12,094 bases of DNA, taken from the IMG/VR virus record IMGVR_UViG_2657245634_000013, positions 1 through 12,094 of that record. One strand, given 5' to 3'. The notes under the pieces are model-generated. The model was not told the origin of the DNA. It saw only the letters and a list, made by a program, of their open reading frames with translations, and did not search any database. The position numbers and the translations under genes are program-made. This document shows, piece after piece, positions 1 through 12,094 of the stretch; positions within the stretch are counted from its first letter, which is position 1, and each line of letters opens with the position of its first letter. The stretch comes from a virus. Lineage: Duplodnaviria; Heunggongvirae; Uroviricota; Caudoviricetes.

Positions 1-168
1 ATCATCGTAGTGAGCCAGTTGCCGGTGGAAAACTGGTACAAAATGATCGGAGACTCCACACATGCGGATGCCATCCTAGATCGACTGGTTCATGGCAGTA
101 TCAAGATCGAACTTAAAGGAGAATCAATGCGGAAAATACAATCTCCGTTGACCGAAGGAGATCAGTGA
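1..168 (+). CDS. IS21-family IstB-like helper ATPase, C-terminal fragment (5' end lies outside the window)
   Basis: Frame 1 is open from the window edge to TGA at 166-168 and translates to ...PVENWYKMIGDSTHADAILDRLVHGSIKIELKGESMRKIQSPLTEGDQ. The AILDRLxH ... KGESxR pattern is the conserved C-terminus of IstB proteins as I recall them. Not in the ORF track because it has no start codon in the window. Confidence 0.55.
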   Translation: MIVVSQLPVENWYKMIGDSTHADAILDRLVHGSIKIELKGESMRKIQSPLTEGDQ

Positions 169-253
169 AGGTAATTTAAAAACGGTTCTGTGAAAGTGAC
201 ACGAACCGATCTCCATCGATGTTACTCACCGATCTCCTTCACGGTAATACGCA
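1..253 (+). mobile_element. Right end of an IS21-family insertion sequence (istB 3' end plus terminal region); the exact terminus is uncertain, roughly 240-260
   Basis: IstB-like C-terminus followed by a non-coding stretch with the motif CCGATCTCC repeated directly at 215-223 and 232-240. Multiple subterminal repeats are typical of IS21-family ends. The terminus itself cannot be fixed without a reference copy. Confidence 0.4.
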
Positions 254-262
254 TTTTTCCCT

Positions 263-658
263 GTGGAGCTTAAAATCGCTTATCAGGAATCCGGCGAATG
301 GCCCGATGATGGAATCGAAATTGACGACACTGTTGCCGCCGAATTTATGAAGGAAGCACCAGAAGGAAAATACAGAGGTGTCATCGACGGAATGCCTGCA
401 TGGATTGATATTCCACCGCCAACTCATGAGGAACAAATTGCCGCAGCCGAACTGGAAAAGCAGCAATTGATTAATCAGGTCAACGAATACATAAACAGTA
501 AGCAATGGCCTGGTAAAGCGGCGATTGGTCGCCTGAAAGGTGAGGAACTGGCGCAATATAATTTGTGGCTGGATTATCTGGACACACTGGAACTGGTCGA
601 TACTTCCGGTGCGCCAGATATTGAATGGCCTACGCCTTCGGCAGTTCAGGCCAGATGA
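263..658 (+). pseudogene. Phage tail fibre assembly protein (Tfa/U-like chaperone), apparently 5'-truncated
   Basis: Translation ends ...LDTLELVDTSGAPDIEWPTPSAVQAR, the typical Tfa C-terminal motif (DTS.APD..WP). The frame opens only at 248 just after a TAA; the first possible start is a GTG at 263 with no RBS. The product is shorter (131 aa) than the neighbouring 185-aa Tfa and sits right against the IS end. Confidence 0.6.
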
Positions 659-1187
659 CATCCGGCGCAGTGCTGGTATCTGTTACCGTCACCGCGTCAA
701 TATAATCCAGCACGGCGTTAAGTCGGGTTGTTTCTGCCTGCGTCAGCTTCCGCCCGGCCTGTAATTTCAGTTGAATCAGACTGATGGAAGCCATTGCAGC
801 ATCAATCAGCGACTGGCGCTGTGCTTCTGCCGCGTCTAGTGCGGCACTATGCTGTGCCTCAGTATCTGTCATCCATTTCTCACCATCCCATTTATCGTAT
901 GGCGTTAACGGTGAAAGCGTGACATAACCGTCTTTGATGGCACCGATATAATCCACTGTAACAGCTACGCCATTTTCGATTGAGTAAACAGTCTCATTGC
1001 GGTGGTCTTCTTCATGGCTCCATCCCTTACCCGTAAATACTGCCACTTTCCCCGGAATGTATTCGCCCGGGTCAATACCAGTGGAACAGGCGGGCATACT
1101 TACGCCAGTATTAATATATTCATCAGACCAGCCCGAATATTCAGACGTTACTGCATCATAATAAAAACAACGCATATCACCCGGCAC
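630..1187 (-). CDS. Phage tail fibre assembly protein (alternative Tfa/U'-like chaperone of the invertible segment)
   Basis: 185-aa ORF ending ...LDYIDAVTVTDTSTAPDVIWPELPKA (Tfa C-terminal motif). It lies immediately downstream of the minus-strand tail-fibre exon and overlaps the plus-strand tfa convergently at 630-658. Start is GTG at 1187 or ATG at 1175. Confidence 0.75.
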   Translation of the reverse strand: MPGDMRCFYYDAVTSEYSGWSDEYINTGVSMPACSTGIDPGEYIPGKVAVFTGKGWSHEEDHRNETVYSIENGVAVTVDYIGAIKDGYVTLSPLTPYDKWDGEKWMTDTEAQHSAALDAAEAQRQSLIDAAMASISLIQLKLQAGRKLTQAETTRLNAVLDYIDAVTVTDTSTAPDVIWPELPKA

Positions 1188-1223
1188 TGTAGCCAGCCCA
1201 TTTTCATCAAAAAACAGGTTTCA

Positions 1224-1730
1224 TTATGCAGCCCTCACAATATAATTAAAGGCGATGTTACGTGGACGGTTTTCATTAGCTGTTGGCACGACACGAGAGG
1301 CGTCGAATCCAAGGTCATCGGTTTTGCCTATATCAGTTGTGTTATTCGGCATTCTCGCAGATCGTGTTCCTGCATCATAAAAAGCCCCTCTGATTGCATC
1401 AAAAGACATACCGATCCCGCCATCTGCGAATCCCTCAATATTTCTTATTGCATCCCCCTGTGAAGATAATAATTGTCGCCCGGCATCCACTCCACGTCCG
1501 TCATCCCAGCCACGAATAAATTCACCGCGTAAATCAGGCAATTTATTTGTCGGATAAACCTTTGCCAGTTCCGGGTATTCTTCAGCAGAAAAAGCCGCAC
1601 CGTTGCATTTCAGCCAGCCAGTAGGCGGTGTGGCTGAAGGCCACGGAACAGGCACACCAACGGGTAATGCCGAACCTTCTCCCAAACCAACGTTTATGAA
1701 AATGCAGAGATAACGGCTAACTGGCATCAT
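1224..1730 (-). CDS. Tail-fibre variable C-terminal exon (Mu S'v / P2 H C-terminus-like), silent orientation; the real tail-fibre portion is about 1224-1675
   Basis: Contains PVGVPVPWPSATPPTGWLKCNGAAFSAEEYPELAKVYPTNKLPDLRG and the C-terminal ...NIAFNYIVRAA, both characteristic of P2 H / Mu S variable domains. The first ~18 codons lie outside the crossover site and the frame is closed by TAA just upstream, as expected for the non-expressed copy of an invertible tail-fibre gene. Confidence 0.8.
   Translation of the reverse strand: MMPVSRYLCIFINVGLGEGSALPVGVPVPWPSATPPTGWLKCNGAAFSAEEYPELAKVYPTNKLPDLRGEFIRGWDDGRGVDAGRQLLSSQGDAIRNIEGFADGGIGMSFDAIRGAFYDAGTRSARMPNNTTDIGKTDDLGFDASRVVPTANENRPRNIAFNYIVRAA
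1676..1701. other. Putative DNA-invertase crossover site (gix/hix/pix-like)
   Basis: TTCTCCCAAACC-AA-CGTTTATGAAAA: two imperfectly inverted 12-bp half-sites around a 2-bp core, similar to hixL TTCTTGAAAACC-AA-GGTTTTTGATAA and gix TTATCCAAAACC-TC-GGTTTACAGGAA (quoted from memory). It sits at the constant/variable boundary of the tail-fibre exon and next to the invertase gene. Confidence 0.55.
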
Positions 1731-1757
1731 CTCCGGTTTTTATTCAGGGGGATGATC

Positions 1758-2351
1758 ATGCTTATTGGCTATGTACGCGTGTCAACAAATGACCAGAACA
1801 CGGAATTGCAGAGTAATGCGCTGGAGTGTGCAGGATGTGAGCTGATTTTTGAGGATAAAATCAGCGGCTCGAAGTCCGACAGGCCGGGGCTGAAAAAACT
1901 GCTCAGGACACTATCGGCAGGAGACACGTTGGTTGTCTGGAAGCTGGACAGACTGGGGCGCAGTATGCGGCATCTCGTTACGCTGATAGAAGAGTTGCGC
2001 CAGCGTGGTGTGAATTTCAGAAGCCTGACTGACAGTATTGATACCAGTACCCCAATGGGCCGTTTCTTTTTTCATGTCATGGGTGCCCTGGCTGAAATGG
2101 AGCGAGAACTCATTGTCGAGCGGACACGCGCAGGACTGGAAGCGGCCAGAGCCAAAGGTCGTATTGGTGGCAGACGACCGAAACTCACCGCGAGAGAGTG
2201 GGAGCAGGCAGGACGGTTGCTGGCTGCGGGGGAATCTCGTCAACGTGTGGCGCTGATTTTTGATATTGGCCTGTCCACGCTCTATAAAAAATTCCCCTCA
2301 TCAGCGACAAAGAATAAATTGTGTCATCCCTTAGCCAACCGGGACAAATAG
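1758..2351 (+). CDS. Serine DNA invertase of the Gin/Hin/Pin/Cin family
   Basis: MLIGYVRVSTNDQNTELQ...VVWKLDRLGRSMRHL...MGRFFFHVMGALAEMERELIVERT...GRIGGRRPKL...STLYKKFP: resolvase/invertase catalytic N-terminus with the catalytic Ser in VRVSTNDQ and a C-terminal HTH; closely resembles e14 Pin as recalled. The ATG at 1758 is preferred over 1752 because AGGGGG at 1744-1749 gives better RBS spacing. Confidence 0.9.
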   Translation: MLIGYVRVSTNDQNTELQSNALECAGCELIFEDKISGSKSDRPGLKKLLRTLSAGDTLVVWKLDRLGRSMRHLVTLIEELRQRGVNFRSLTDSIDTSTPMGRFFFHVMGALAEMERELIVERTRAGLEAARAKGRIGGRRPKLTAREWEQAGRLLAAGESRQRVALIFDIGLSTLYKKFPSSATKNKLCHPLANRDK

Positions 2352-2380
2352 CCTGACATCTCCGGCACAACTGAAAATAC
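2321..2380 (+). promoter_or_regulatory. Possible Ogr-dependent P2-type late promoter for the FI-FII-E-T-U-D operon
   Basis: TGT(2323-2325)-N12-AAC partial dyad about 50 bp upstream of a -10-like GAAAAT (2374-2379), 30 bp before the FI start. This resembles the P2 late-promoter architecture (TGT-N12-ACA centred near -55) but the match is imperfect. Confidence 0.25.
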
Positions 2381-2410
2381 CACTCACCCATTAACCACGG
2401 AGTTAAACGG

Positions 2411-3601
2411 ATGAGTGACTATCATCACGGCGTGCAGGTGCTGGAGATTAACGACGGCACCCGCGTCATTTCCACCGTATCCACTGCCATTGTCGGCATG
2501 GTCTGCACGGCCAGCGATGCGGATGCGGAAATCTTCCCCCTCAATAAACCGGTGCTGATCACCAATGTGCAGAGCGCGATTGCAAAGGCCGGTAAAAAAG
2601 GCACGCTGGCGGCATCGTTGCAGGCCATCGCTGACCAGTCAAAACCGGTCACCGTTGTCGTGCGCGTGGAAGACGGCACCGGCGACGACGAAGAAACGAA
2701 ACTCGCGCAGACCGTTTCCAATATCATCGGCACCACTGACGAAAACGGTCAGTACACCGGACTGAAAGCCCTGCTGGCGGCGGAGTCGGTTACCGGTGTT
2801 AAACCGCGTATTCTCGGTGTGCCGGGACTGGACACCAAAGAGGTGGCGGTTGCACTGGCATCAGTCTGTCAGAAGCTGCGCGCTTTCGGGTATATCAGCG
2901 CATGGGGCTGTAAAACCATTTCCGAGGTGAAAGCCTACCGCCAGAATTTCAGCCAGCGTGAGCTGATGGTCATCTGGCCGGATTTCCTCGCATGGGATAC
3001 GGTCGCCAGTACCACCGCCACCGCGTATGCCACCGCCCGTGCGCTGGGCCTGCGCGCTAAAATCGACCAGGAGCAGGGCTGGCATAAAACGCTGTCCAAC
3101 GTCGGGGTAAACGGTGTTACCGGCATCAGTGCCTCTGTATTCTGGGATTTGCAGGAGTCCGGCACCGATGCTGACCTGTTGAACGAGTCAGGTGTCACAA
3201 CGCTGATTCGCCGTGACGGTTTCCGATTCTGGGGTAACCGTACCTGCTCTGATGACCCGCTGTTCCTCTTTGAAAACTACACCCGCACCGCGCAGGTGCT
3301 GGCCGACACGATGGCTGAGGCGCACATGTGGGCGGTGGACAAGCCCATCACCGCAACGCTGATTCGCGACATCGTTGACGGCATCAATGCCAAATTTCGT
3401 GAGCTGAAAACAAACGGCTATATCGTGGATGCGACCTGCTGGTTCAGCGAAGAATCCAACGATGCGGAAACCCTTAAGGCCGGAAAACTGTATATCGACT
3501 ACGACTATACCCCGGTTCCTCCTCTTGAAAACCTGACCCTGCGCCAGCGTATTACCGATAAATACCTGGCAAATCTGGTCACCTCGGTTAACAGCAATTA
3601 A
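2411..3601 (+). CDS. FI: Contractile tail sheath protein (P2 gpFI)
   Basis: 396-aa ORF beginning MSDYHHGVQVLEINDGTRVISTVSTAIVGMVCTASDADAE..., essentially matching P2 FI as recalled; same length as P2 FI; GGAG RBS at 2400-2403. Confidence 0.95.
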   Translation: MSDYHHGVQVLEINDGTRVISTVSTAIVGMVCTASDADAEIFPLNKPVLITNVQSAIAKAGKKGTLAASLQAIADQSKPVTVVVRVEDGTGDDEETKLAQTVSNIIGTTDENGQYTGLKALLAAESVTGVKPRILGVPGLDTKEVAVALASVCQKLRAFGYISAWGCKTISEVKAYRQNFSQRELMVIWPDFLAWDTVASTTATAYATARALGLRAKIDQEQGWHKTLSNVGVNGVTGISASVFWDLQESGTDADLLNESGVTTLIRRDGFRFWGNRTCSDDPLFLFENYTRTAQVLADTMAEAHMWAVDKPITATLIRDIVDGINAKFRELKTNGYIVDATCWFSEESNDAETLKAGKLYIDYDYTPVPPLENLTLRQRITDKYLANLVTSVNSN

Positions 3602-3613
3602 GGAGCCTGACCG

Positions 3614-4132
3614 ATGGCAATGCCGCGCAAACTCAAGTTAATGAACGTCTTTCTGAACGGCTACAGCTATCAGGGCGTTGCAAAGTCCGTCACGCTGCCA
3701 AAACTGACCCGTAAACTCGAAAACTATCGCGGTGCGGGGATGAACGGAAGCGCACCGGTAGACCTCGGCCTTGATGACGATGCGCTGTCAATGGAGTGGT
3801 CGCTCGGGGGCTTCCCGGATTCGGTTATCTGGGAGCTTTACGCCGCAACCGGCGTGGATGCCGTACCGATTCGTTTTGCAGGCTCTTACCAGCGCGACGA
3901 TACCGGCGAAACGGTAGCCGTTGAAGTGGTCATGCGTGGACGTCAGAAAGAAATCGACACCGGCGAGGGTAAACAGGGAGAAGACACCGAGTCGAAAATC
4001 TCCGTAGTCTGCACCTATTTCCGGCTGACGATGGACGGTAAGGAGCTGGTCGAAATCGACACCATCAACATGATTGAGAAGGTGAACGGCGTCGACCGGC
4101 TGGAGCAACACCGCCGCAATATCGGCCTGTAA
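3614..4132 (+). CDS. FII: Tail tube protein (P2 gpFII)
   Basis: 172-aa ORF MAMPRKLKLMNVFLNGYSYQGVAKSVTLPKLTRKLENYRGAG... directly after the sheath gene; AAGGAG RBS at 3599-3604; length equals P2 FII. Confidence 0.95.
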   Translation: MAMPRKLKLMNVFLNGYSYQGVAKSVTLPKLTRKLENYRGAGMNGSAPVDLGLDDDALSMEWSLGGFPDSVIWELYAATGVDAVPIRFAGSYQRDDTGETVAVEVVMRGRQKEIDTGEGKQGEDTESKISVVCTYFRLTMDGKELVEIDTINMIEKVNGVDRLEQHRRNIGL

Positions 4133-4188
4133 TTTTCATCCGGTCAGTCAGGCTGACCGGTTAACCCCGATTCAGAAGTGAGAAAACC

Positions 4189-4464
4189 ATGAACAAAGAA
4201 AATGTCATTACCCTGGACAATCCGGTCAAACGTGGTGAGCAGGTTATCGAACAGGTCACGCTGATGAAACCCAATGCCGGGACGCTGCGCGGTGTCAGTC
4301 TGGCAGCGGTCGCGAACTCCGAAGTCGATGCACTGATTAAGGTGCTGCCGCGCATGACGGCACCGATGCTGACCGAGCAGGAAGTCGCCGCGCTGGAACT
4401 GCCTGACCTTGTGGCGCTGGCCGGTAAGGTGGTCGGTTTTTTGTCGCCGAACTCGGTGCAGTGA
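4189..4464 (+). CDS. E: Tail assembly chaperone (P2 gpE)
   Basis: 91-aa ORF MNKENVITLDNPVKRGEQVIEQVTLMKPNAG... in the position and size of P2 E; contains the TTTTTTG slippery heptamer near its 3' end. Confidence 0.9.
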   Translation: MNKENVITLDNPVKRGEQVIEQVTLMKPNAGTLRGVSLAAVANSEVDALIKVLPRMTAPMLTEQEVAALELPDLVALAGKVVGFLSPNSVQ

Positions 4465-4616
4465 CGTTTCCAAAAAATCTCTCGGTCGATGACCTGATGG
4501 CGGATGTGGCAGTGATATTTCACTGGCCGCCATCAGAACTGTATCCCATGAGCCTGACCGAACTCATCACATGGCGCGAAAAGGCGCTCCGGCGAAGCGG
4601 AAACACGAATGAGTAA
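4189..4616 (+). CDS. Tail assembly chaperone frameshift product (P2 gpE+E'), made by -1 ribosomal frameshift at T_TTT_TTG (4437-4443)
   Basis: After a -1 slip at 4437-4443 the new frame stays open and reads ...FVAELGAVTFPKNLSVDDLMADVAVIFHWPPSELYPMSLTELITWREKALRRSGNTNE, ending at TAA 4614-4616 and overlapping the T start. This is the conserved E/E' (lambda G/GT-type) arrangement. Confidence 0.8.
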
Positions 4617-7056
4617 CAATGTAAAATTACAGGTATTGCTCAGGGCTGTTGACCAGGCATCCCGCCCGTTTAAATCCATCCGCACAGCGAGTAAGTCGCT
4701 GTCGGGGGATATCCGGGAAACACAAAAATCACTGCGCGAGCTGAACGGTCAGGCATCCCGTATTGAGGGATTCCGCAAGACCAGTGCACAGCTCGCCGTG
4801 ACTGGTCATGCACTTGAAAAGGCACGGCAGGAGGCCGAAGCCCTTGCCACACAGTTTAAAAATACCGAACGTCCGACCCGTGCTCAGGCGAAAGTGCTGG
4901 AATCCGCAAAGCGTGCGGCGGAGGACTTACAGGCGAAATATAACCGCCTGACGGATTCCGTTAAACGCCAGCAGCGGGAACTGGCCGCTGTGGGAATTAA
5001 TGCCCGCAATCTTGCACATGATGAGCAGGGACTGAAAAACCGTATCAGTGAAACCACCGCACAACTTAACCGTCAGCGCGACGCGCTGGCGCGTGTCAGT
5101 GCGCAACAGGCAAAACTTAACGCAGTAAAACAGCGTTATCAGGCCGGAAAGGAACTGGCCGGAAATATGGCCTCAGTAGGCGCTGCCGGTGTGGGGATTG
5201 CGGCGGCGGGAACGATGGCCGGAGTTAAGTTGCTGATGCCCGGTTATGAGTTTGCGCAGAAAAACTCAGAATTGCAGGCCGTGCTAGGTGTGGCAAAAGA
5301 CTCCGCCGAAATGGCTGCACTACGCAAGCAGGCGCGCCAGCTCGGCGACAACACCGCCGCCTCGGCGGATGATGCTGCCGGTGCACAGATTATTATCGCG
5401 AAAGCCGGTGGGGATGTTGATGCCATTCAGGCGGCAACGCCGGTCACGCTGAATATGGCGCTGGCGAACCGTCGCACGATGGAAGAAAACGCCGCCCTGC
5501 TGATGGGGATGAAATCCGCCTTTCAGCTTTCAAACGATAAGGTCGCTCATATCGGGGATGTTCTCTCCATGACGATGAACAAAACCGCCGCCGATTTTGA
5601 CGGCATGAGCGATGCGCTGACCTATGCCGCACCTGTGGCAAAAAATGCCGGTGTCAGCATTGAAGAAACCGCCGCAATGGTCGGGGCGCTGTATGATGCA
5701 AAAATCACAGGCTCAATGGCGGGGACGGGAAGCCGTGCCGTGTTAAGCCGCCTGCAGGCACCGACGGGAAAAGCATGGGATGCACTCAAAGAGCTTGGAG
5801 TGAAAACCTCAGACAGCAAGGGAAACACCCGACCAGTATTTACCATTCTGAAAGAAATGCAGGCCAGTTTTGAGAAAAACCGGCTCGGTACTGCCCAGCA
5901 GGCTGAATACATGAAAACTATTTTCGGGGAGGAGGCCAGCTCAGCCGCCGCCGTGCTGATGACTGCCGCCTCAACCGGAAAGCTGGACAAACTGACCGCT
6001 GCGTTTAAAGCCTCAGACGGGAAGACCGCCGAGCTGGTAAATATCATGCAGGACAACCTCGGCGGTGACTTTAAAGAGTTTCAGTCCGCTTATGAGGCGG
6101 TGGGGACTGACCTGTTTGACCAGCAGGAAGGCGCACTGCGTAAGCTCACGCAGACGGCCACAAAGTATGTGTTAAAACTCGACGGCTGGATACAGAAAAA
6201 CAAATCACTGGCGTCAACCATCGGCATCATTGTCGGTGGTGCACTGGCACTGATTGGTGTCATCGGTGCCATTGGCCTCGTAGCCTGGCCGGTTATCACC
6301 GGCATCAATGCCATCATCGCGGCAGCAGGCGCAATGGGGGCAGTCTTCACGACGGTTGGCAGTGCTGTTATGACCGCCATCGGGGCTATTAGCTGGCCGG
6401 TTGTGGCCGTGGTGGCCGCAATTGTCGCCGGGGCGTTGCTTATCCGTAAATACTGGGAGCCTGTCAGCACATTCTTTGGCGGTGTGGTGGAAGGGCTGAA
6501 AGCGGCATTTGCGCCGGTGGGGGAACTGTTCACGCCACTTAAGCCGGTGTTTGACTGGCTGGGCGAAAAGTTACAGGCCGCGTGGCAGTGGTTTAAAAAC
6601 CTGATCGCCCCGGTTAAAGCCATCCAGGACACCCTGAACCGTTGCCGTGACACGGGCGTCATGTTCGGGCAGGCACTGGCTGACGCGTTGATGCTGCCGC
6701 TTAATGCGTTCAACAAACTGCGCAGTGGTATTGACTGGGTACTGGAAAAACTCGGTGTTATCAACAAAGAGTCAGACACACTTGACCAGACCGCCGCCAG
6801 AACTCATGCCGCCACGTATGGCACCGGTGGTTATATTCCGGCGACCAGCTCTTATGCAGGCTATCAGGCTTATCAGCCGGTTACGGCACCGGCTGGCCGC
6901 TCTTATGTGGACCAGAGTAAAAACGAATATCACATCAGTCTGACGGGCGGTACTGCGCCGGGGACTCAGCTCGACCGCCAGTTACAGGATGCGCTCGAAA
7001 AATACGAGCGGGATAAACGTGCGCGCGCCCGTGCCAGCATGATGCATGACGGTTAA
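4609..7056 (+). CDS. T: Tail tape measure protein (P2 gpT)
   Basis: 815-aa ORF with an N-terminal coiled-coil-rich region and a long Gly/Ala-rich hydrophobic segment (aa about 530-600), typical of tape measure proteins. Same length and position as P2 T. Confidence 0.95.
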   Translation: MSNNVKLQVLLRAVDQASRPFKSIRTASKSLSGDIRETQKSLRELNGQASRIEGFRKTSAQLAVTGHALEKARQEAEALATQFKNTERPTRAQAKVLESAKRAAEDLQAKYNRLTDSVKRQQRELAAVGINARNLAHDEQGLKNRISETTAQLNRQRDALARVSAQQAKLNAVKQRYQAGKELAGNMASVGAAGVGIAAAGTMAGVKLLMPGYEFAQKNSELQAVLGVAKDSAEMAALRKQARQLGDNTAASADDAAGAQIIIAKAGGDVDAIQAATPVTLNMALANRRTMEENAALLMGMKSAFQLSNDKVAHIGDVLSMTMNKTAADFDGMSDALTYAAPVAKNAGVSIEETAAMVGALYDAKITGSMAGTGSRAVLSRLQAPTGKAWDALKELGVKTSDSKGNTRPVFTILKEMQASFEKNRLGTAQQAEYMKTIFGEEASSAAAVLMTAASTGKLDKLTAAFKASDGKTAELVNIMQDNLGGDFKEFQSAYEAVGTDLFDQQEGALRKLTQTATKYVLKLDGWIQKNKSLASTIGIIVGGALALIGVIGAIGLVAWPVITGINAIIAAAGAMGAVFTTVGSAVMTAIGAISWPVVAVVAAIVAGALLIRKYWEPVSTFFGGVVEGLKAAFAPVGELFTPLKPVFDWLGEKLQAAWQWFKNLIAPVKAIQDTLNRCRDTGVMFGQALADALMLPLNAFNKLRSGIDWVLEKLGVINKESDTLDQTAARTHAATYGTGGYIPATSSYAGYQAYQPVTAPAGRSYVDQSKNEYHISLTGGTAPGTQLDRQLQDALEKYERDKRARARASMMHDG

Positions 7057-7070
7057 GGAGGTGACGAAAA

Positions 7071-7550
7071 ATGATGCTCGCGTTAGGTATGTTTGTTTTT
7101 ATGCGCCAGACGCTGCCACACCAGACCATGCAGCGTGAATCAGATTATCGCTGGCCGTCAAATTCCCGTATCGGTAAACGGGATGCCTTTCAGTTTCTCG
7201 GTGTTGGCGAGGAAAACATCACGCTTGCCGGTGTGCTTTATCCCGAACTGACCGGCGGAAAGCTGACGATGACCACGCTCAGGCTGATGGCAGAGGAAGG
7301 CCGGGCGTGGCCGTTGCTGGATGGCACAGGCATGATTTACGGCATGTATGTCATCAGCAGGGTGAGTGAAACAGGGAGTATTTTCTTTGCAGACGGCACA
7401 CCCCGGAAAATTGATTTTACGCTGTCGCTCACCCGCGTGGATGAATCACTGGCCGCGCTTTATGGCGATATCGGTAAACAGGCGGAGTCGCTCATCGGTA
7501 AAGCTGGCAGTATGGCGACCAGATTCACGGGTATGACGGGGGCGGGATAA
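7071..7550 (+). CDS. U: Tail protein (P2 gpU)
   Basis: 159-aa ORF after T with AAGGAGG RBS at 7055-7061; its stop overlaps the D start (TAATG), indicating translational coupling. Length and order as in P2. Confidence 0.9.
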   Translation: MMLALGMFVFMRQTLPHQTMQRESDYRWPSNSRIGKRDAFQFLGVGEENITLAGVLYPELTGGKLTMTTLRLMAEEGRAWPLLDGTGMIYGMYVISRVSETGSIFFADGTPRKIDFTLSLTRVDESLAALYGDIGKQAESLIGKAGSMATRFTGMTGAG

Positions 7551-8713
7551 TGCTGGATGCACTGACATTTGATGCAGGCAGTACGCTGACGCCGGATTAC
7601 ATGCTGATGCTCGACAGCAGGGATATTACCGGCAATATCAGCGACCGTCTGATGAGTATGACCCTGACGGATAGCCGGGGCTTTGAGGCTGACCAGCTTG
7701 ATATTGAACTGAACGATGCCGACGGGCAGGTCGGGCTGCCGGTTCGTGGTGCTGTTCTGACGGTGTATATCGGCTGGAAAGGTTTTGCCCTGGTATGCAA
7801 AGGGAAATTCACCGTTGATGAGGTTGAACACCGGGGCGCGCCGGATGTTGTCACCATCCGCGCCCGGAGTGCAGATTTTCGCGGGACGCTCAATTCCCGC
7901 CGTGAAGGCTCATGGCATGACACCACGCTCGGTGCGATTGTTGAGGCGATAGCCTCCCGTAACAGGCTGAAAGCCAGTGTCGCTCCGTCACTGGCCGGAA
8001 TTAAAATCCCGCACATCGACCAGTCGCAGGAGTCTGATGCGAAATTCCTGACCCGTCTTGCAGAACGCAACGGCGGTGAGGTGTCGGTAAAAATGGGAAA
8101 ACTGTTGTTTCTCAAAGCGGGGCAGGGGGTGACGGCCAGCGGTAAAAAAATCCCGCAGATTACCATCACCCGCAGCGACGGCGACCGCCATCATTTTGCG
8201 ATTGCTGACCGTGGAGCCTATACCGGCGTAACGGCAAAGTGGTTACACACCAAAGACCCGAAGCCGCAAAAGCAGAAGGTAAAACTGAAACGCAAAAAGA
8301 AAGAAAAACACCTGCGCGCACTGGAGCACCCGAAAGCAAAACCGGTCAGGCAGAAGAAAGCGCCAAAAGTACCGGAAGCGCGCGAAGGTGAATACATGGC
8401 CGGTGAGGCTGACAACGTTTTTGCCCTGACCACGGTATATGCCACGAAAGCACAGGCCATGCGTGCCGCTCAGGCGAAGTGGGATAAACTGCAACGGGGC
8501 GTTGCGGAGTTCTCCATCAGCCTGGCTACCGGTCGTGCAGATATTTACACGGAAACACCGGTCAGAGTGTCAGGCTTTAAGCGCGTCATAGACGAGCAGG
8601 ACTGGACCATCACTAAGGTGACACATTTTCTGAATAATAGCGGCTTCACGACGTCCTTAGAGCTTGAGGTCAGGCTTTCTGATGTGGAGTACGAAACAGA
8701 AGATGATGAGTGA
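7550..8713 (+). CDS. D: Tail protein D (P2 gpD, late control gene D)
   Basis: 387-aa ORF MLDALTFDAGSTLTPDYMLMLDSRDITGNISDRLMSMTLTDSRGFEADQLDIELNDADG... with a Lys-rich linker; length and position as in P2 D. Confidence 0.95.
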   Translation: MLDALTFDAGSTLTPDYMLMLDSRDITGNISDRLMSMTLTDSRGFEADQLDIELNDADGQVGLPVRGAVLTVYIGWKGFALVCKGKFTVDEVEHRGAPDVVTIRARSADFRGTLNSRREGSWHDTTLGAIVEAIASRNRLKASVAPSLAGIKIPHIDQSQESDAKFLTRLAERNGGEVSVKMGKLLFLKAGQGVTASGKKIPQITITRSDGDRHHFAIADRGAYTGVTAKWLHTKDPKPQKQKVKLKRKKKEKHLRALEHPKAKPVRQKKAPKVPEAREGEYMAGEADNVFALTTVYATKAQAMRAAQAKWDKLQRGVAEFSISLATGRADIYTETPVRVSGFKRVIDEQDWTITKVTHFLNNSGFTTSLELEVRLSDVEYETEDDE

Positions 8714-8794
8714 CGTTTTTATTTTATCTATTTGTTTTATAAGGATAAATTAACTAAAATGGCACCATCAACAAAACCGGAAGAGGTGCTCGCG

Positions 8795-9013
8795 ATGTTT
8801 CATTGTCCTTTATGCCAGCATGCCGCACATGCGCGTACAAGCCGCTATATCACTGACACGACAAAAGAGCGTTATCATCAGTGCCAGAACGTGAATTGCA
8901 GTGCCACGTTCATCACTTATGAGTCGGTACAGCGATACATCGTGAAGCCGGGAGAAGTCCACGCCGTAAGGCCGCACCCGTTGCCGTCAGGGCAGCAAAT
9001 TATGTGGATGTGA
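8795..9013 (+). CDS. ogr: Late gene transcriptional activator Ogr (zinc-finger)
   Basis: 72-aa product MFHCPLCQHAAHARTSRYITDTTKERYHQCQNVNCSATFITYESVQRYIVKPGEVHAVRPHPLPSGQQIMWM with the Cys-X2-Cys...Cys-X4-Cys zinc-binding motif. The ORF-track start at 8732 is an in-frame upstream extension; the ATG at 8795 gives the canonical 72-aa Ogr. Confidence 0.95.
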   Translation: MFHCPLCQHAAHARTSRYITDTTKERYHQCQNVNCSATFITYESVQRYIVKPGEVHAVRPHPLPSGQQIMWM

Positions 9014-9023
9014 TCACAAAAAT

Positions 9024-9050
9024 AGCCCCTCAGTTGAGGGGCTTTATTTA
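9024..9050 (+). terminator. Rho-independent terminator downstream of ogr
   Basis: Stem AGCCCCTC / GAGGGGCT with loop AGTT, followed by TTTATTTA, starting 11 bp after the ogr stop. Confidence 0.7.
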
Positions 9051-9056
9051 TGGTCG

Positions 9057-9075
9057 ATGTGGACGTTATGTGGAC
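9057..9075 (+). repeat. Tandem direct repeat ATGTGGAC-gtt-ATGTGGAC (11-bp spacing); candidate integrase arm-type binding sites in the prophage att arm
   Basis: Exact 8-bp repeat at 9057-9064 and 9068-9075, in non-coding DNA between the last phage gene and host sequence. Confidence 0.45.
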
Positions 9076-9081
9076 AGTGGT

Positions 9082-9103
9082 TGATATAAATCCATTTATA
9101 TCA
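9082..9103. repeat. Perfect 10-bp inverted repeat TGATATAAAT-cc-ATTTATATCA in the att region
   Basis: Exact palindrome read directly from the sequence; AT-rich; lies between the direct repeats and the host-like terminator. Confidence 0.6.
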
Positions 9104-9111
9104 TCAGGTTA

Positions 9112-9168
9112 GGTGCTTTTTTGTGACACCATCCCTGTCTTCCCCCACATGATGTGGGGGTTTTTTTT
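9112..9168 (+). ncRNA. Possible CpxQ-like sRNA remnant (3' UTR of cpxP); 5' boundary uncertain
   Basis: Terminator hairpin plus upstream GACACCATCCCTGTCTTCCCCC, recalled as the conserved part of CpxQ; no cpxP coding sequence is visible upstream, consistent with the prophage junction lying at the cpxP 3' end. This is from memory and unverified. Confidence 0.35.
9142..9168 (+). terminator. Rho-independent terminator, probably the host cpxP terminator (3' end of the CpxQ sRNA region)
   Basis: Stem CCCCCACAT / ATGTGGGGG followed by eight T residues. The preceding GACACCATCCCTGTCTTCCCCC matches my recollection of the cpxP 3' UTR / CpxQ, and fieF lies directly downstream as in the E. coli cpxP-fieF arrangement. 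Confidence 0.6.
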
Positions 9169-9249
9169 ATCCTCAATTTGCCTGCTGCTTAATGCATTGC
9201 AGATGATTTGCTTCCGTTATACTAGCGTCAGTTGATAGCGGGAGTATTT

Positions 9250-9867
9250 ATGAATCAATCTTATGGACGGCTGGTCAGTCGGGCGGCGATTGCTGCGACG
9301 GCGATGGCTTCGTTGCTATTGCTGATTAAAATTTTTGCATGGTGGTATACCGGGTCGGTGAGTATTCTCGCCGCGCTGGTGGATTCGCTGGTGGATATCG
9401 GCGCGTCGTTGACGAATTTACTGGTGGTGCGATATTCCCTGCAACCTGCCGACGATAATCACTCGTTTGGTCACGGTAAAGCAGAGTCCCTCGCGGCGCT
9501 GGCGCAAAGTATGTTTATCTCCGGTTCGGCACTATTCCTGTTTTTGACGGGTATTCAACATCTGATATCTCCAACACCGATGACAGATCCAGGCGTCGGG
9601 GTTATCGTGACAATTGTGGCGCTAATTTGTACGATTATCCTTGTCTCGTTTCAGCGTTGGGTGGTGCGCCGGACGCAAAGCCAGGCGGTGCGGGCTGATA
9701 TGCTACATTACCAGTCTGATGTTATGATGAACGGCGCAATTCTGCTGGCGCTGGGGTTGTCCTGGTACGGCTGGCATCGCGCCGATGCTCTGTTTGCATT
9801 GGGAATCGGCATCTATATTTTATATAGCGCGTTACGCATGGGATATGAGGCGGTACAGTCATTACTG
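9250..9867 (+). pseudogene. fieF: Cation-diffusion-facilitator ferrous iron/zinc efflux protein FieF (YiiP), 3'-truncated after about codon 206
   Basis: [86 protein letters not shown]... matches FieF up to ...[10 protein letters not shown]; GGAG RBS at 9242-9245. After about 9867 the frame continues only as antisense read-through of the autotransporter gene, and the cytoplasmic C-terminal domain (expected DRALPDEERQ...) is absent. Confidence 0.85.
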
Positions 9868-12063
9868 GCTGTGACCATTCATATCCAGTTCAGTCTCTGC
9901 CGCCAGACGCAGTTCATGGGTATTACCCAACACGTTATCGTTATTCAACAAAAGCGTCCCACTGCGCAGATCGGTAACACCGGTATAGTCGTTGTCTTTG
10001 TTAGAAAGCGATACGGTCTGACCCTTCTGGCTGCTGAATGCCAGGTCACCACTGCCGGTAATCTTTGCGCTGAGATCGGCGGCATTCTCGCTTTTACCGT
10101 TAGAGCTCAGCACCAGAGCATCGCTGTCGGTAGCGTGTAAATCAAGCTGGGTCAGGCCGTAACCGATATACAGACCGTCATTGTTTACCCCACTCGTCAG
10201 ACGATAGTCGTAAGTGCCGACGGCCGCTTTTTGCCCATTCTGCTGAATATCACGTTGGGCACTGCTGGAGAGGATTTGCCCATTTTTATCCTGCAATTGC
10301 AGATTGCCCGCATCGCCCAGAACTTCCGCACCTTGCGCATCAACCAACTTAATGGTGCTGTTACCATCATCGACTTCAGTGAGCGATAACGCAGAGTCAA
10401 TATCACGAGATACTGAGCTTACAACGTCACTGTCAGAAACCTGAATCACACCCTCGCCGCGCAAATCCAGCGTTTTACTAACGTTGACCGTCCCTTCTGT
10501 CATCTGTGCACCTGCTGTCAGGGCACCAAAATCAACGGTTCCGCCGGAGAATCCCAAAGTGCTAATGGAGTGAGCGCCCTTACCCACTATTACCTGGCTT
10601 CCCTGACCCGCAGTGATCCCGCCTCTCTGCAGAAACTCAGCATTCTTTTCCAGGTTAAATGTCGTGTTCTGGAACGCCAGTGAACCCTGGAACCAGTCTG
10701 TATAAGCAAACTCATCGAAGGAGAATTCGTGATTCCCCATGTTTATTTCAACAATACCTCTACCTTGAAGATCGTTATCAAATACCCAATCTTTATTGGC
10801 ATTGATTTGCAGTTTGCCATCAACATCCAGGTCCGCACGGCCGATGTTCTTGTCTTCAGAAATAACCGCGACAGCACCAGAAGCGACATCAATATATCCG
10901 CTGAATGCATAGTTATTGCCGGTCAGTGCCACTGTCCCACTGTCGATACTTATTGTACCATTGCCGGAAATCTTATTGGCAAAGGTCATGCTATCGTCAG
11001 CCTTCAGGTGTAATTTCCCGCGGTTGTTGATCTCTGCTGTACCTATATTTTGGGTGATCCCTAAAGCGCCATTTTGCTCAATTTTGACTTTACCACTAAA
11101 GGCAGAGTTATCACCGGTTAAGTAAGTCGTGCCATTGAGCGCATTGATATAGCCCAGGCCCTCGCTGCCACTGACAATATCCGCGGAAATAGTCGCGTTT
11201 TTATCCGTGTGGTTTAAGGTGATTTTCTTATCGGATGTCTTTGCCCACACAAACTCAATTTTTTCGGCATCAATAATCCCTGCAGCCTTCGCAGCACTTC
11301 CTTCCTGTGCACCTAACGCTAACTCAGAGTTGGTGCTTAAACTAATTTTCGGTGCGGATATTTTACCTCCATCTGATACGACTAATGTTGTATCAGAACG
11401 TTGGTCGTAATAACCCAGGCTAATATGTTCACGAGCATTAACTTCACCGCCGTTATTAACTGACAGGTACTGATTACCACCGTAACTGCCGTAAACGCCC
11501 ATAAAGAAGGTTTTAGAATTTACCTGGCTGCCTTCACCACTGACATTTCCCTGCAAATAGGTCAGACGGCTGGTGCCCTTAACATGGATTTTGCCGCCGT
11601 TGGAGACATTAAAATAGCCGCGATCGTGTCTCATGCCTGAGTTTGACTCATACAAATCATCAGCATATAACTCGCTGCCAGCATTGGAGACATTCAGGAA
11701 CCCCGTACCTTTCAGCAAAAAGTTAAGTGGGCCATTGATAGTTACCTTTCCTCCGGTAATATCCAACCCACCACCAGAAGCGAGAGTCAGACGCGGACGG
11801 GAAGTATCTGTCGCATTGATTACCAGATTGGCATTGTCAGTCACCGTAATACGGTAATCGATGCTCTGGTTCTCTTTGCCAAAATCAATAGTTTTATCCT
11901 GGTTTACGATGACATCATCGGCGAATACCAGAGATGAATATAAACTTATCGCGCTAATTAAAACAGCCCGGGACTTTTTTCCTTTTACTCTGCTCCCCAG
12001 CTCCGAGCAGACGCTCCAACAGTTACGGGACCTGTTCCACTTTAGCCGATATATTTTATTCAT
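9862..12063 (-). pseudogene. Autotransporter adhesin (type Va), signal peptide plus beta-helical passenger domain, 3'-truncated (no beta-barrel translocator)
   Basis: N-terminus MNKIYRLKWNRSRNCWSVCSELGSRVKGKKS... is an extended signal peptide region (ESPR) typical of autotransporters, followed by a Gly/Asn/Ser/Thr-rich repetitive passenger (GNxxxSG-type beta-helix repeats). The ORF ends ...ELDMNGHSQ with its stop codon supplied by fieF-derived sequence at 9862-9864. Lower GC than the flanking sequence. The likely start is the ATG at 12061-12063, not the track start at 12087. Confidence 0.75.
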
Positions 12064-12094
12064 CACAATCTCCAGCAATACATCCAAATAAAAC

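Follow-up and report, generated by a model that had tools for sequence, protein, structure and literature searches.

A Pin/Gin-type DNA inversion switch for two alternative tail-fibre tips, with an insertion sequence inside its flippable segment, in a P2-like prophage of Escherichia coli

In the G segment of phage Mu, which is 3 kb long, the constant S part is fused to one of two variable exons, accompanied by the chaperone U or U', and the gene of the invertase Gin lies just outside the right crossover site. The P segment of e14, a defective lambdoid-type element of E. coli K-12, has the gene order stfP-tfaP-tfaE-stfE-pinE. Among P2-type phages, Fels-2 of Salmonella Typhimurium LT2 (genus Felsduovirus; invertase STM2702; layout taken directly from its GenBank record) and pro483 (Peduovirus) share the order I, H, tfa, tfa' (opposite strand), H' exon (opposite strand), DNA invertase and FI. 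The Fels-2 invertase is said to be the 'Fin' enzyme described by Kutsukake et al. in 2006, and reportedly complements Hin. In P2 itself, the annotated order is H-G-fun(Z)-pF-FI: the interval between G and FI holds fun(Z), an opposite-strand gene for the exclusion of T5, which is followed by a 390-bp spacer to FI. This Z/fun interval is a known hotspot for cargo and defence genes, in which DNA invertases are often found, with inversion of adjacent genes (2024 preprint, 10.1101/2024.10.15.618418).

The window that we analysed is a stretch of 12,094 bp, corresponding to the complete draft contig CCBW01000016.1 of assembly GCA_000939035.1, which stops inside a copy of ISEc12. It is very probably the right arm of a P2-like (Peduovirus) prophage located beside fieF in E. 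coli, with a tail-fibre protein H whose C-terminus is swappable. The locus is a Pin/Gin-type DNA-flipping switch between two alternative tail-fibre tips, and the arrangement of its cassette is already known. The only departure from the ordinary is an insertion sequence within the flippable segment, which did not stop the flipping. The features of the window are as follows.

1 to 253, plus strand: right end of ISEc12 (IS21 family), with the 3' end of istB (10-168), terminal repeats and the terminus ...ACGCA at 253
254 to 658, plus strand: tfa, chaperone paired with the gp53-like fibre tip (Caudo_TAP; open reading frame 263-658)
630 to 1223, minus strand: tfa', chaperone paired with the collar-domain fibre tip (Caudo_TAP; frameshifted)
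1224 to 1690, minus strand: silent variable exon Hv', C-terminal receptor-binding part of fibre H (Collar domain)
1677 to 1702, no strand: right crossover (pix-type) site, TTCTCCCAAACC-AA-CGTTTATGAAAA, unique in the window
1758 to 2351, plus strand: serine DNA invertase of the Pin family, 197 aa, intact (Resolvase and HTH_7 domains)
2314 to 2342, plus strand: homologue of the pF activator (Ogr) binding site, inside the last invertase codons (P2 annotation and alignment)
2411 to 3601, plus strand: FI, tail sheath (Phage_sheath domains; 97% nucleotide identity to P2)
3614 to 4132, plus strand: FII, tail tube (Phage_tube, 2.3e-60; P2 synteny)
4189 to 4616, plus strand: E and E+E' tail assembly chaperones (E 4189-4464, E' frame 4461-4616; open reading frames and P2 synteny)
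4609 to 7056, plus strand: T, tape measure protein (PhageMin_Tail; P2 synteny)
7071 to 8713, plus strand: tail proteins U (7071-7550) and D (7550-8713) (Phage_P2_GpU, Phage_GPD; P2 synteny)
8795 to 9013, plus strand: ogr, late-gene activator (Ogr_Delta, 2e-21), with no further prophage gene between it and the fieF attachment region

The P2-type tail module recognised in a first-pass annotation of this DNA was borne out by the alignment, since positions 2331-8759 are 97.1% identical to P2 17572-24000 over 6429 ungapped bases and the synteny FI-FII-E/E'-T-U-D-ogr is that of P2-like (Peduovirus) tail operons. In the E/E' region, this contig and relatives carry calls of Phage_TAC_7 and Phage_P2_GpE, and ogr is annotated as ogrK beside fieF in 691 E. 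coli genomes. FI starts at 2411, 59 nt past the stop codon of the invertase gene. Ending so close to FI of a module 97% identical to P2, the invertase occupies the fun(Z) position, between the tail-fibre assembly gene and pF/FI, as had been proposed. Homology to P2 resumes at the pF activator site (ungapped register, with window position 2331 equal to 4573 of the P2 locus); judging from its sequence, the segment 2314-2342 would act as the activator site of pF also here, and the P2 pF transcription start maps to about 2385-2387. With respect to P2, recombination and fibre modules are present, the spacer has shrunk, and pF and the end of the invertase gene overlap. The junction between invertase and FI is common to 549 of 5426 complete E. 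coli genomes (about 10%).

The product of 1758-2351 contains a Resolvase catalytic domain (E=2.2e-52) and an HTH_7 domain (1.1e-12), with the helix-turn-helix at the C-terminus, and carries the motifs MLIGYVRVS, which includes Ser9, and KLDRLGRS. Over 181 aa it shows 85.6% identity with PinE of e14 and 77.9% with Gin of Mu; it also matches phrog_125 (DNA invertase, 1e-99), and finds its best solved-structure match in Gin (3uj3, 7e-93, aligned to Gin residues 1-182). Therefore, the first-pass assignment to the Gin/Hin/Pin/Cin (Din) family stands on the domains, on the closeness to characterised members and on the structure match. NCBIfam contains no Pin-specific model, and there the invertase gave only sub-threshold matches to other serine recombinases. 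By analogy with the Gin/Hin/Pin paradigm, Ser9 would be the catalytic residue and the reaction would depend on Fis and on an enhancer. A Fis-consensus 15-mer (GAGGATAAAATCAGC) lies at 1851-1865, at a position conserved in gin and pinE, as found by a crude motif scan in which conservation is confounded with coding constraint. The same scan gave no clear partner at the canonical 48-bp spacing from this 15-mer; a second match (GGCTGAAAAAACTGC, 1888-1902) is spaced 37 bp from it. Promoter and terminator predictions in 150-2450 were not more numerous than in shuffled sequence, and no promoter could be assigned to the invertase.

A small serine recombinase in the Z/fun interval might also have another role, as a transposon resolvase or as the regulator of a defence or cargo gene. 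This interval is a hotspot for such genes, small serine recombinases include resolvases, and the γδ and Tn3 resolvases were indeed found as structural matches, weaker than Gin. However, with the bona fide invertases Gin and PinE the protein shares 78-86% identity, the crossover site has the same sequence as in e14, and between the sites of intact relatives there are only two fibre exons and two tfa genes. Moreover, no res-like site and no transposase partner besides the unrelated ISEc12 are present, and none of the invertase, the two Tfa proteins, the fibre exon and Ogr had a match in PADLOC. Such a role is thus extremely improbable. For every prophage open reading frame of the window there is a counterpart in P2 or in a cassette; this result, together with the PADLOC search, favours a host-range switch over defence cargo, which is how the locus had been read at first.

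The right crossover site (TTCTCCCAAACCAACGTTTATGAAAA, 1677-1702; chance expectation, 0 matches) is identical at 26 of 26 positions to the e14 site beside pinE and at 17 of 26 to Mu gix. Strand exchange takes place at its central dinucleotide, 1689/1690. In fact, the reverse-orientation homology to strain 15A and to the related contig L009 stops exactly at 1690, the strand switches between 1690 and 1691, and differences at the junction are confined to four positions of the outer half-site (1691, 1694, 1697 and 1700). On the right, the invertible DNA therefore ends at the dinucleotide 1689/1690 and not at 1675, where its limit had been drawn before. In the 12,094 bp of the window a second crossover site was not found, even when 7-9 mismatches were allowed; only one site is present because the contig ends in the IS. 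The partner (left) site, TTCTCGTATACC-TT-GGTTTGGGAGAA (complete sequence TTCTCGTATACCTTGGTTTGGGAGAA), was found within H in all intact relatives and in the sister contigs L009 and L011. In the intact relatives GPEC1222, pro483, 15A, L016 and L017, the two sites are inverted with respect to each other and lie about 1.83 kb apart. With the left site of the relatives, the locus thus has two inverted 26-bp sites with matching central dinucleotides, one of them adjoining the invertase.

The orientation of the segment was compared between assemblies, each draft contig reporting one orientation only; the relatives obtained by looking up the invertase were the 24 blocks with the longest contigs. The complete genome of strain 15A, whose invertase is 100% identical to that of the window, matches 1676-9868 at 99.99%, and matches 254-1702 in reverse. 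GPEC1222 (a near-complete chromosome, deposited as a whole-genome shotgun record) and the intact contig L017 are oriented as the window, while L016 and L018 are in the other orientation. Therefore, the segment occurs in both orientations with exchange at the centre of the site. The contig L010 has the same ISEc12 junction in the same orientation as the window. In the sister assemblies GCA_001373235.1 and GCA_000946335.1, the ISEc12/tfa junction and the tfa' frameshift of the window recur in the opposite orientation; in both, window positions 1-1702 are inverted and continue across the left site into the constant part of H. The sister contigs L009 and L011 have the IS junction, the frameshift in the A-run and the SNP at 872 in common with the window, flipped and attached to H. 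Since the same IS junction and frameshift are found in both orientations, the IS lies inside the segment and inversion took place after its arrival.

These observations bear on the view of the first-pass annotation that the left site is missing and inversion is locked. A frozen remnant of this kind would have arisen if an IS-mediated deletion had removed H, the active exon and the left site, leaving an orphan invertase and a fixed segment 254-1690. The single crossover site of the window, tfa being cut off at the IS end, and the ability of IS21-family elements to cause adjacent deletions are what one would expect in this case. However, the window comprises an entire draft contig, broken off in ISEc12, so that absence from it is uninformative on the genome. 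L009 and L011 share IS junction, frameshift and SNP with the window but are flipped and joined to H through the left site, which requires that both sites were present after the IS had inserted; inversion, moreover, regenerates both sites. A locked remnant is therefore unlikely: the segment inverted after IS arrival, and the left site thus exists elsewhere in the genome.

The differences in orientation might instead be assembly artefacts caused by the inverted repeat. All IS-bearing examples are short-read draft contigs, and the contigs of several relatives break near the site (L021 and L022). In L020, a junction between the kdp operon and the invertase, considered as an invertase-mediated chromosomal rearrangement, was rejected, as it turned out to be an N10 scaffold gap. 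On the other hand, the inverted identity shared by the sites is only about 14 bp (TTCTCCCAAACCAA), which is below the usual assembly k-mers, so that contigs crossing the site should have read support. Furthermore, the complete genome of 15A shows one orientation, and GPEC1222 and the draft contig L017 the other. Paired-read mapping has also been used to measure inversion in P2-like prophages of EPEC, with PCR in addition for e14 (PMC4272514). We consider an artefact very unlikely, and real inversion the explanation of the two orientations.

The two tfa genes are convergent and overlap by 29 bp, and both products match PF02413 and tail-fibre-assembly PHROGs, which makes them members of the Tfa/gpG/Mu U family. 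The plus-strand tfa (263-658; Caudo_TAP tail-fibre assembly protein, E=1.7e-31) is incomplete, as ISEc12, which ends at 253, has taken the place of its first 12 codons; in 15A, GPEC1222 and L017 the intact 146-aa homologue begins 36 nt further upstream. In the minus-strand tfa', of which a residual open reading frame is left (630-1187 or 630-1175; Caudo_TAP, E=7e-26), one extra A in the A-run at 1204-1209 shifts the frame at codon 5-6 with respect to the intact 197-aa gene of 15A. The 181-aa product of tfa' is called identically in five draft contigs; exact-protein look-ups of the 185-aa version and of a chimeric FieF open reading frame gave no match. A putative fieF::ehaA junction lies at 9865-9868. 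Of the two convergent tfa genes described at first, convergence and family identity were thus confirmed, whereas neither gene is complete. The silent alternative tail-fibre exon was recognised correctly, being a promoterless C-terminal exon with a Collar domain at 1224-1690. Its mechanically called open reading frame (1224-1730, minus strand) reads on through the crossover site and matches the Collar domain (E=3.9e-15) and phrog_523 (tail collar fiber protein, 1.6e-79). In 15A, L016 and L009 a sequence identical to Hv' makes up the C-terminal end of H, a protein of 430 aa (...LVYLGLGEGSALPVG...).

Annotated plasmid copies of ISEc12 match the IS fragment at 99.2% identity, and the end of istB matches Pfam IstB_IS21 (1.4e-12). 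Its terminus was set from IRL/IRR and from the 5-bp target duplication GTATT in pSF-088-1. A 12-bp overlap of the IS and prophage alignments (251-262) was considered as microhomology and discarded, as the IS ends at 253 and the overlap reflects a similarity of the flanks due to chance or target preference. The IS/tfa junction had no exact match in a scan of the contigs of GTDB representative genomes. We propose that ISEc12 inserted in codon 12 of tfa, inside the invertible segment, probably by simple insertion with a 5-bp TTTTT target duplication. The contig stops there because this repeat interrupted the assembly. The left IS junction is predicted to read ...AAAAATGCGTTTTT/TGCGTATTTTCATG... 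(5' end of tfa and left end of ISEc12), which may also be written ...GATAAAAATGCGTTTTT/TGCGTATTTTCATGAAAGG...; on its far side this genome would have the gp53-like exon, the second (left) crossover site and H.

In the proposed mechanism, the intact order would be the constant part of H, the left 26-bp site, a variable exon with its tfa, then on the opposite strand tfa' and the other variable exon, followed by the right 26-bp site, the invertase and FI. The Pin-type invertase would recombine the two inverted sites at the central AA/TT dinucleotide and flip about 1.83 kb. The constant part of H would thereby receive one of two tips, the gp53-like one being co-expressed with the 146-aa Tfa and the collar-domain one with the 197-aa Tfa'; in the orientation of the window, the collar tip and Tfa' are silent. 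If the Gin/Hin/Pin paradigm applies, the virions would presumably change in receptor or host range as a result.

With respect to the known systems, e14 has the same gene order, the same right site and a left site that shares the inner half, and its cassette is 80-89% identical at the nucleotide level over parts. However, its fibre tips differ in part, the invertase of the window has a C-terminus 13 aa longer than PinE, with an open reading frame that reads into the P2 pF promoter, and the host element is here a P2-type myovirus tail operon. Mu, with which the C segment of P1 and its invertase Cin are grouped, follows the same logic, with the invertase gene in the same place, but its segment is longer (3 kb compared to about 1.8 kb) and its phage backbone is different. 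Fels-2 and pro483 have exactly the same architecture, the invertase of pro483 being 93.9% identical to that of the window, with the same junction with pF, and the site of Fels-2 differing at 4 of 26 positions; unlike the lineage of the window, neither has an IS in the segment. The classification as a Mu/e14-type invertible tail-fibre cassette with a Pin-family invertase was therefore right, while the novelty it seemed to imply was not, as the same layout is found in Fels-2, in pro483, in 549 of 5426 complete E. coli genomes and in the literature. Since it is a Din-family tail-fibre switch of the textbook kind, and its position has been reported before in P2-like phages, the locus should not be flagged as new hotspot cargo, and its value beyond correct annotation is small.

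Two lessons may be drawn from it: a contig that ends in an IS is not a deletion, the missing crossover site resulting here from draft assembly, and the state of an inversion can be read from sister assemblies without any reads. The IS has damaged one chaperone gene and a frameshift the other, and the switch is therefore probably decaying; it may have ceased to affect the phenotype, and fibre assembly may be defective in this prophage. The 2.6-kb ISEc12 would enlarge the segment from about 1.8 to about 4.4 kb without abolishing inversion, and the invertase is kept intact despite both damaged chaperones. One could speculate, although we regard this as quite improbable, that the segment is still actively flipping and that the switch itself, or an action of the invertase in trans on further pix/hix-type sites of the genome, is maintained for a function at the level of the host rather than for phage host range. 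As it shows that inversion went on after the insertion, the IS-marked segment is a handy natural marker.

The gene order of the window, taken from the ORF list and a Pfam scan, is as follows.

10-168: C-terminus of IstB (IS21 family)
263-658, + strand: tail-fibre assembly gene (Caudo_TAP), tfa
630-1187, - strand: second, convergent Caudo_TAP gene, tfa'
1224-1730, - strand: tail-fibre C-terminal ORF with a Collar domain
1752/1758-2351, + strand: Resolvase+HTH_7 protein
2411-3601: FI, first of the P2 tail genes
after FI: the P2 tail genes FII, E/E', T, U and D, in that order
after D: Ogr/Delta zinc-finger gene
right end of the window: truncated fieF, then the 5' part of an autotransporter gene (- strand)

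PHROGs assignments (DNA invertase, 1e-99; tail fiber assembly; tail collar fiber protein) agree with Pfam, and the cassette parts described in the first-pass annotation are therefore correct. A PADLOC search with the invertase, both Tfa proteins, the fibre exon and Ogr returned no defence-system matches, in keeping with the earlier view that nothing in the window looks like such a system.

The 197-aa invertase carries the MLIGYVRVS motif with Ser9. Over 181 residues it shares 85.6% identity with e14 PinE and 77.9% with Mu Gin, and its best match among solved structures is Gin (3uj3, 7e-93), which bears out the assignment of the 1758-2351 product to the Pin/Gin type. A crossover site, TTCTCCCAAACCAACGTTTATGAAAA, is found at 1677-1702, 55 bases 5' of the invertase ATG; it occurs once in the window, where shuffled sequence predicts zero matches. 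The site beside pinE in e14 is the same, and Mu gix has 17/26 positions in common with it. As in Mu, P1 and e14, the site falls within the reading frame of the fibre exon, here on the minus strand (…FINVGLGEGSALPVG…). No second crossover site was found in the window, with 7-9 mismatches allowed.

E. coli O111:H21 strain 15A has a prophage at the same fieF site. It shows one mismatch in 8193 bases with respect to window 1676-9868, and its match to window 254-1702 is in the reverse orientation. The reversed stretch differs from 15A by a SNP at 872, an additional A in the 1204-1209 run, and four mismatches, at 1691, 1694, 1697 and 1700, which represent the outer half-site. Since the site mismatches are confined to this half-site, homology switches strand exactly at the central AA (1689/1690), and a switch at the central dinucleotide is the hallmark of exchange of the Gin/Pin type. 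The H protein of 15A (430 aa) has its C-terminus encoded by the collar-domain exon, with a 197-aa Tfa' following it; the window's orientation, intact in the relative L017, gives a 394-aa H with a gp53-like tip, followed by a 146-aa Tfa.

The first-pass annotation had predicted that the cassette, with its left site missing, would be locked. According to an exact-protein look-up with the frameshifted 181-aa Tfa', the window makes up all 12,094 bp of contig CCBW01000016.1 in draft assembly GCA_000939035.1; the sequence ends within the IS because the assembler halted at the repeat. The terminus of ISEc12 corresponds to window 253, as established from the inverted repeats and the 5-bp target duplication of the copy on plasmid pSF-088-1, and tfa picks up again at codon 13 after it. 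The same look-up retrieved three sister contigs (L009, L010 and L011) having the same IS junction and frameshift as the window. L010 (GCA_000946315.1) has the window's orientation, beside the invertase. In L009 (GCA_001373235.1) and L011 (GCA_000946335.1), window 1-1702 is reversed and attached to the constant part of H via the left site, with mismatches only at those same four positions of the outer half-site. Therefore, one segment marked by both the IS and the frameshift exists in both orientations, and the locked state is not supported: the kind of system had been correctly recognized, but not its state. These junctions indicate that ISEc12 lies inside the invertible segment, enlarging it to ~4.4 kb, and that both crossover sites were present after the IS insertion and inversion continued. 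The structure that we infer is a simple insertion of ISEc12.

Next to the ISEc12 terminus, on its right side, lie 13 bp (254-266), TTTTTCCCTGTGG, that are similar to the ISEc12 flank on the IncF plasmid pSF-088-1 (L004 2854-2866), GTATTCCCTGTGG, a likeness that may stem from a preference of this IS21-family element for certain insertion sites. The interval between gpS and gpV of L009 also holds, on the opposite strand (907-1692, -), a gene for a 261-aa predicted membrane protein with a full-length match to phrog_2407 (unknown function) and no PADLOC match; neither GPEC1222 nor phage pro483 has a gene there.

By analogy with the invertase family, invertase dimers would bind two inverted 26-bp sites, and an enhancer bound by Fis, expected in the 5' end of the invertase gene, would assemble the invertasome. 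Ser9 would cut both sites, each at its central dinucleotide; rotation of the subunits by 180 degrees and religation would then yield the inverted segment. Inversion would swap the C-terminal exon and the chaperone gene that follow the constant part of H and are driven by the late V-operon promoter. From the precedents of Mu, P1 and carotovoricin (cited in PMC4272514), a consequence for host range would follow.

The P2 record gives the order H, G, terminator, fun(Z) on the opposite strand, pF activator-binding site, transcription start and FI. Window 2331-8759 aligns ungapped with P2 17572-24000 (97.1% identity), and a four-way alignment showed that P2 homology starts at the pF activator site. 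The homologue of this Ogr/activator-binding site is window 2314-2342, within the final invertase codons (stop codon 2349-2351); therefore, the cassette and the invertase fill the G-FI interval, and the Z/fun placement proposed earlier holds. Both are so tightly packed in this interval that the invertase gene runs into the late promoter, and the cassette/backbone junction consequently falls inside the invertase gene (2298-2351), as also in pro483 and GPEC1222. PinE, in contrast, has a C-terminus 13 aa shorter and no equivalent of the last ~16 residues (SSATKNKLCHPLANRDK). The invertase stop codon is a TAG that is also present in P2 at the corresponding position.

While the invertase is intact, with no difference from its 15A counterpart, tfa is damaged by the IS and tfa' by a frameshift at codon 5-6, where the window has an A6 run (1204-1209) as compared to A5 in intact relatives. 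This frameshift is found in five independent draft contigs, so a homopolymer sequencing error is unlikely and the frameshift is probably real; re-initiation of tfa' at 1187 or 1175 is possible. The overall picture resembles a prophage at an early stage of decay, with its recombination machinery still functional.

At the other end of the window, fieF (9250-9868) is cut mid-gene at 9868 and abuts ehaA (9865-12094, -) with a 4-bp overlap and no IS. The ehaA stretch covers 2.2 kb from the 5' end of this autotransporter gene and is 100% identical to its counterparts in many strains. The junction is present in 0/5426 complete E. coli genomes and was seen only in the window's contig, the only one in which the shortened EhaA product (743 aa) is encoded; either a genuine large rearrangement took place here or the draft contig is chimeric.

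E. coli GPEC1222 is 96.6% identical over window 251-8500. It shares with phage pro483 the full arrangement, namely I, H, tfa(+), tfa'(-), fibre exon(-), invertase(+) and FI, with a second, inverted site inside H, separated from the other by ~1.83 kb. The layout recurs in Fels-2 of Salmonella LT2, where the invertase STM2702 adjoins FI, and the invertase-FI junction was found in 549/5426 complete E. coli genomes (701-bp probe of the invertase 3' half and FI start, covered for at least 80%). Egorov et al. often observed a DNA invertase in the Z/fun hotspot of P2-like phages, with adjacent genes inverted (10.1101/2024.10.15.618418), and Goldberg et al. described inversion-based phase variation in EPEC P2-like prophages by whole-genome sequencing (PMC4272514). 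The arrangement in Z/fun is thus already known, and its novelty had been overrated. In a further compared sequence, L020, kdpFABC-ybfA appears joined directly to a crossover site and invertase (4602-5001); this was ruled out as a recombination product, the join being an N10 scaffold gap. In E. coli LWY24 (L023 4267-7057), a nearly identical cassette, with ~94% nucleotide identity to window 254-2218 and a 184-aa PinE, lies beside pphA, where it forms one end of an unrelated myovirus-type prophage. The fibre-switch cassette is a portable module, moving from one phage backbone to another.
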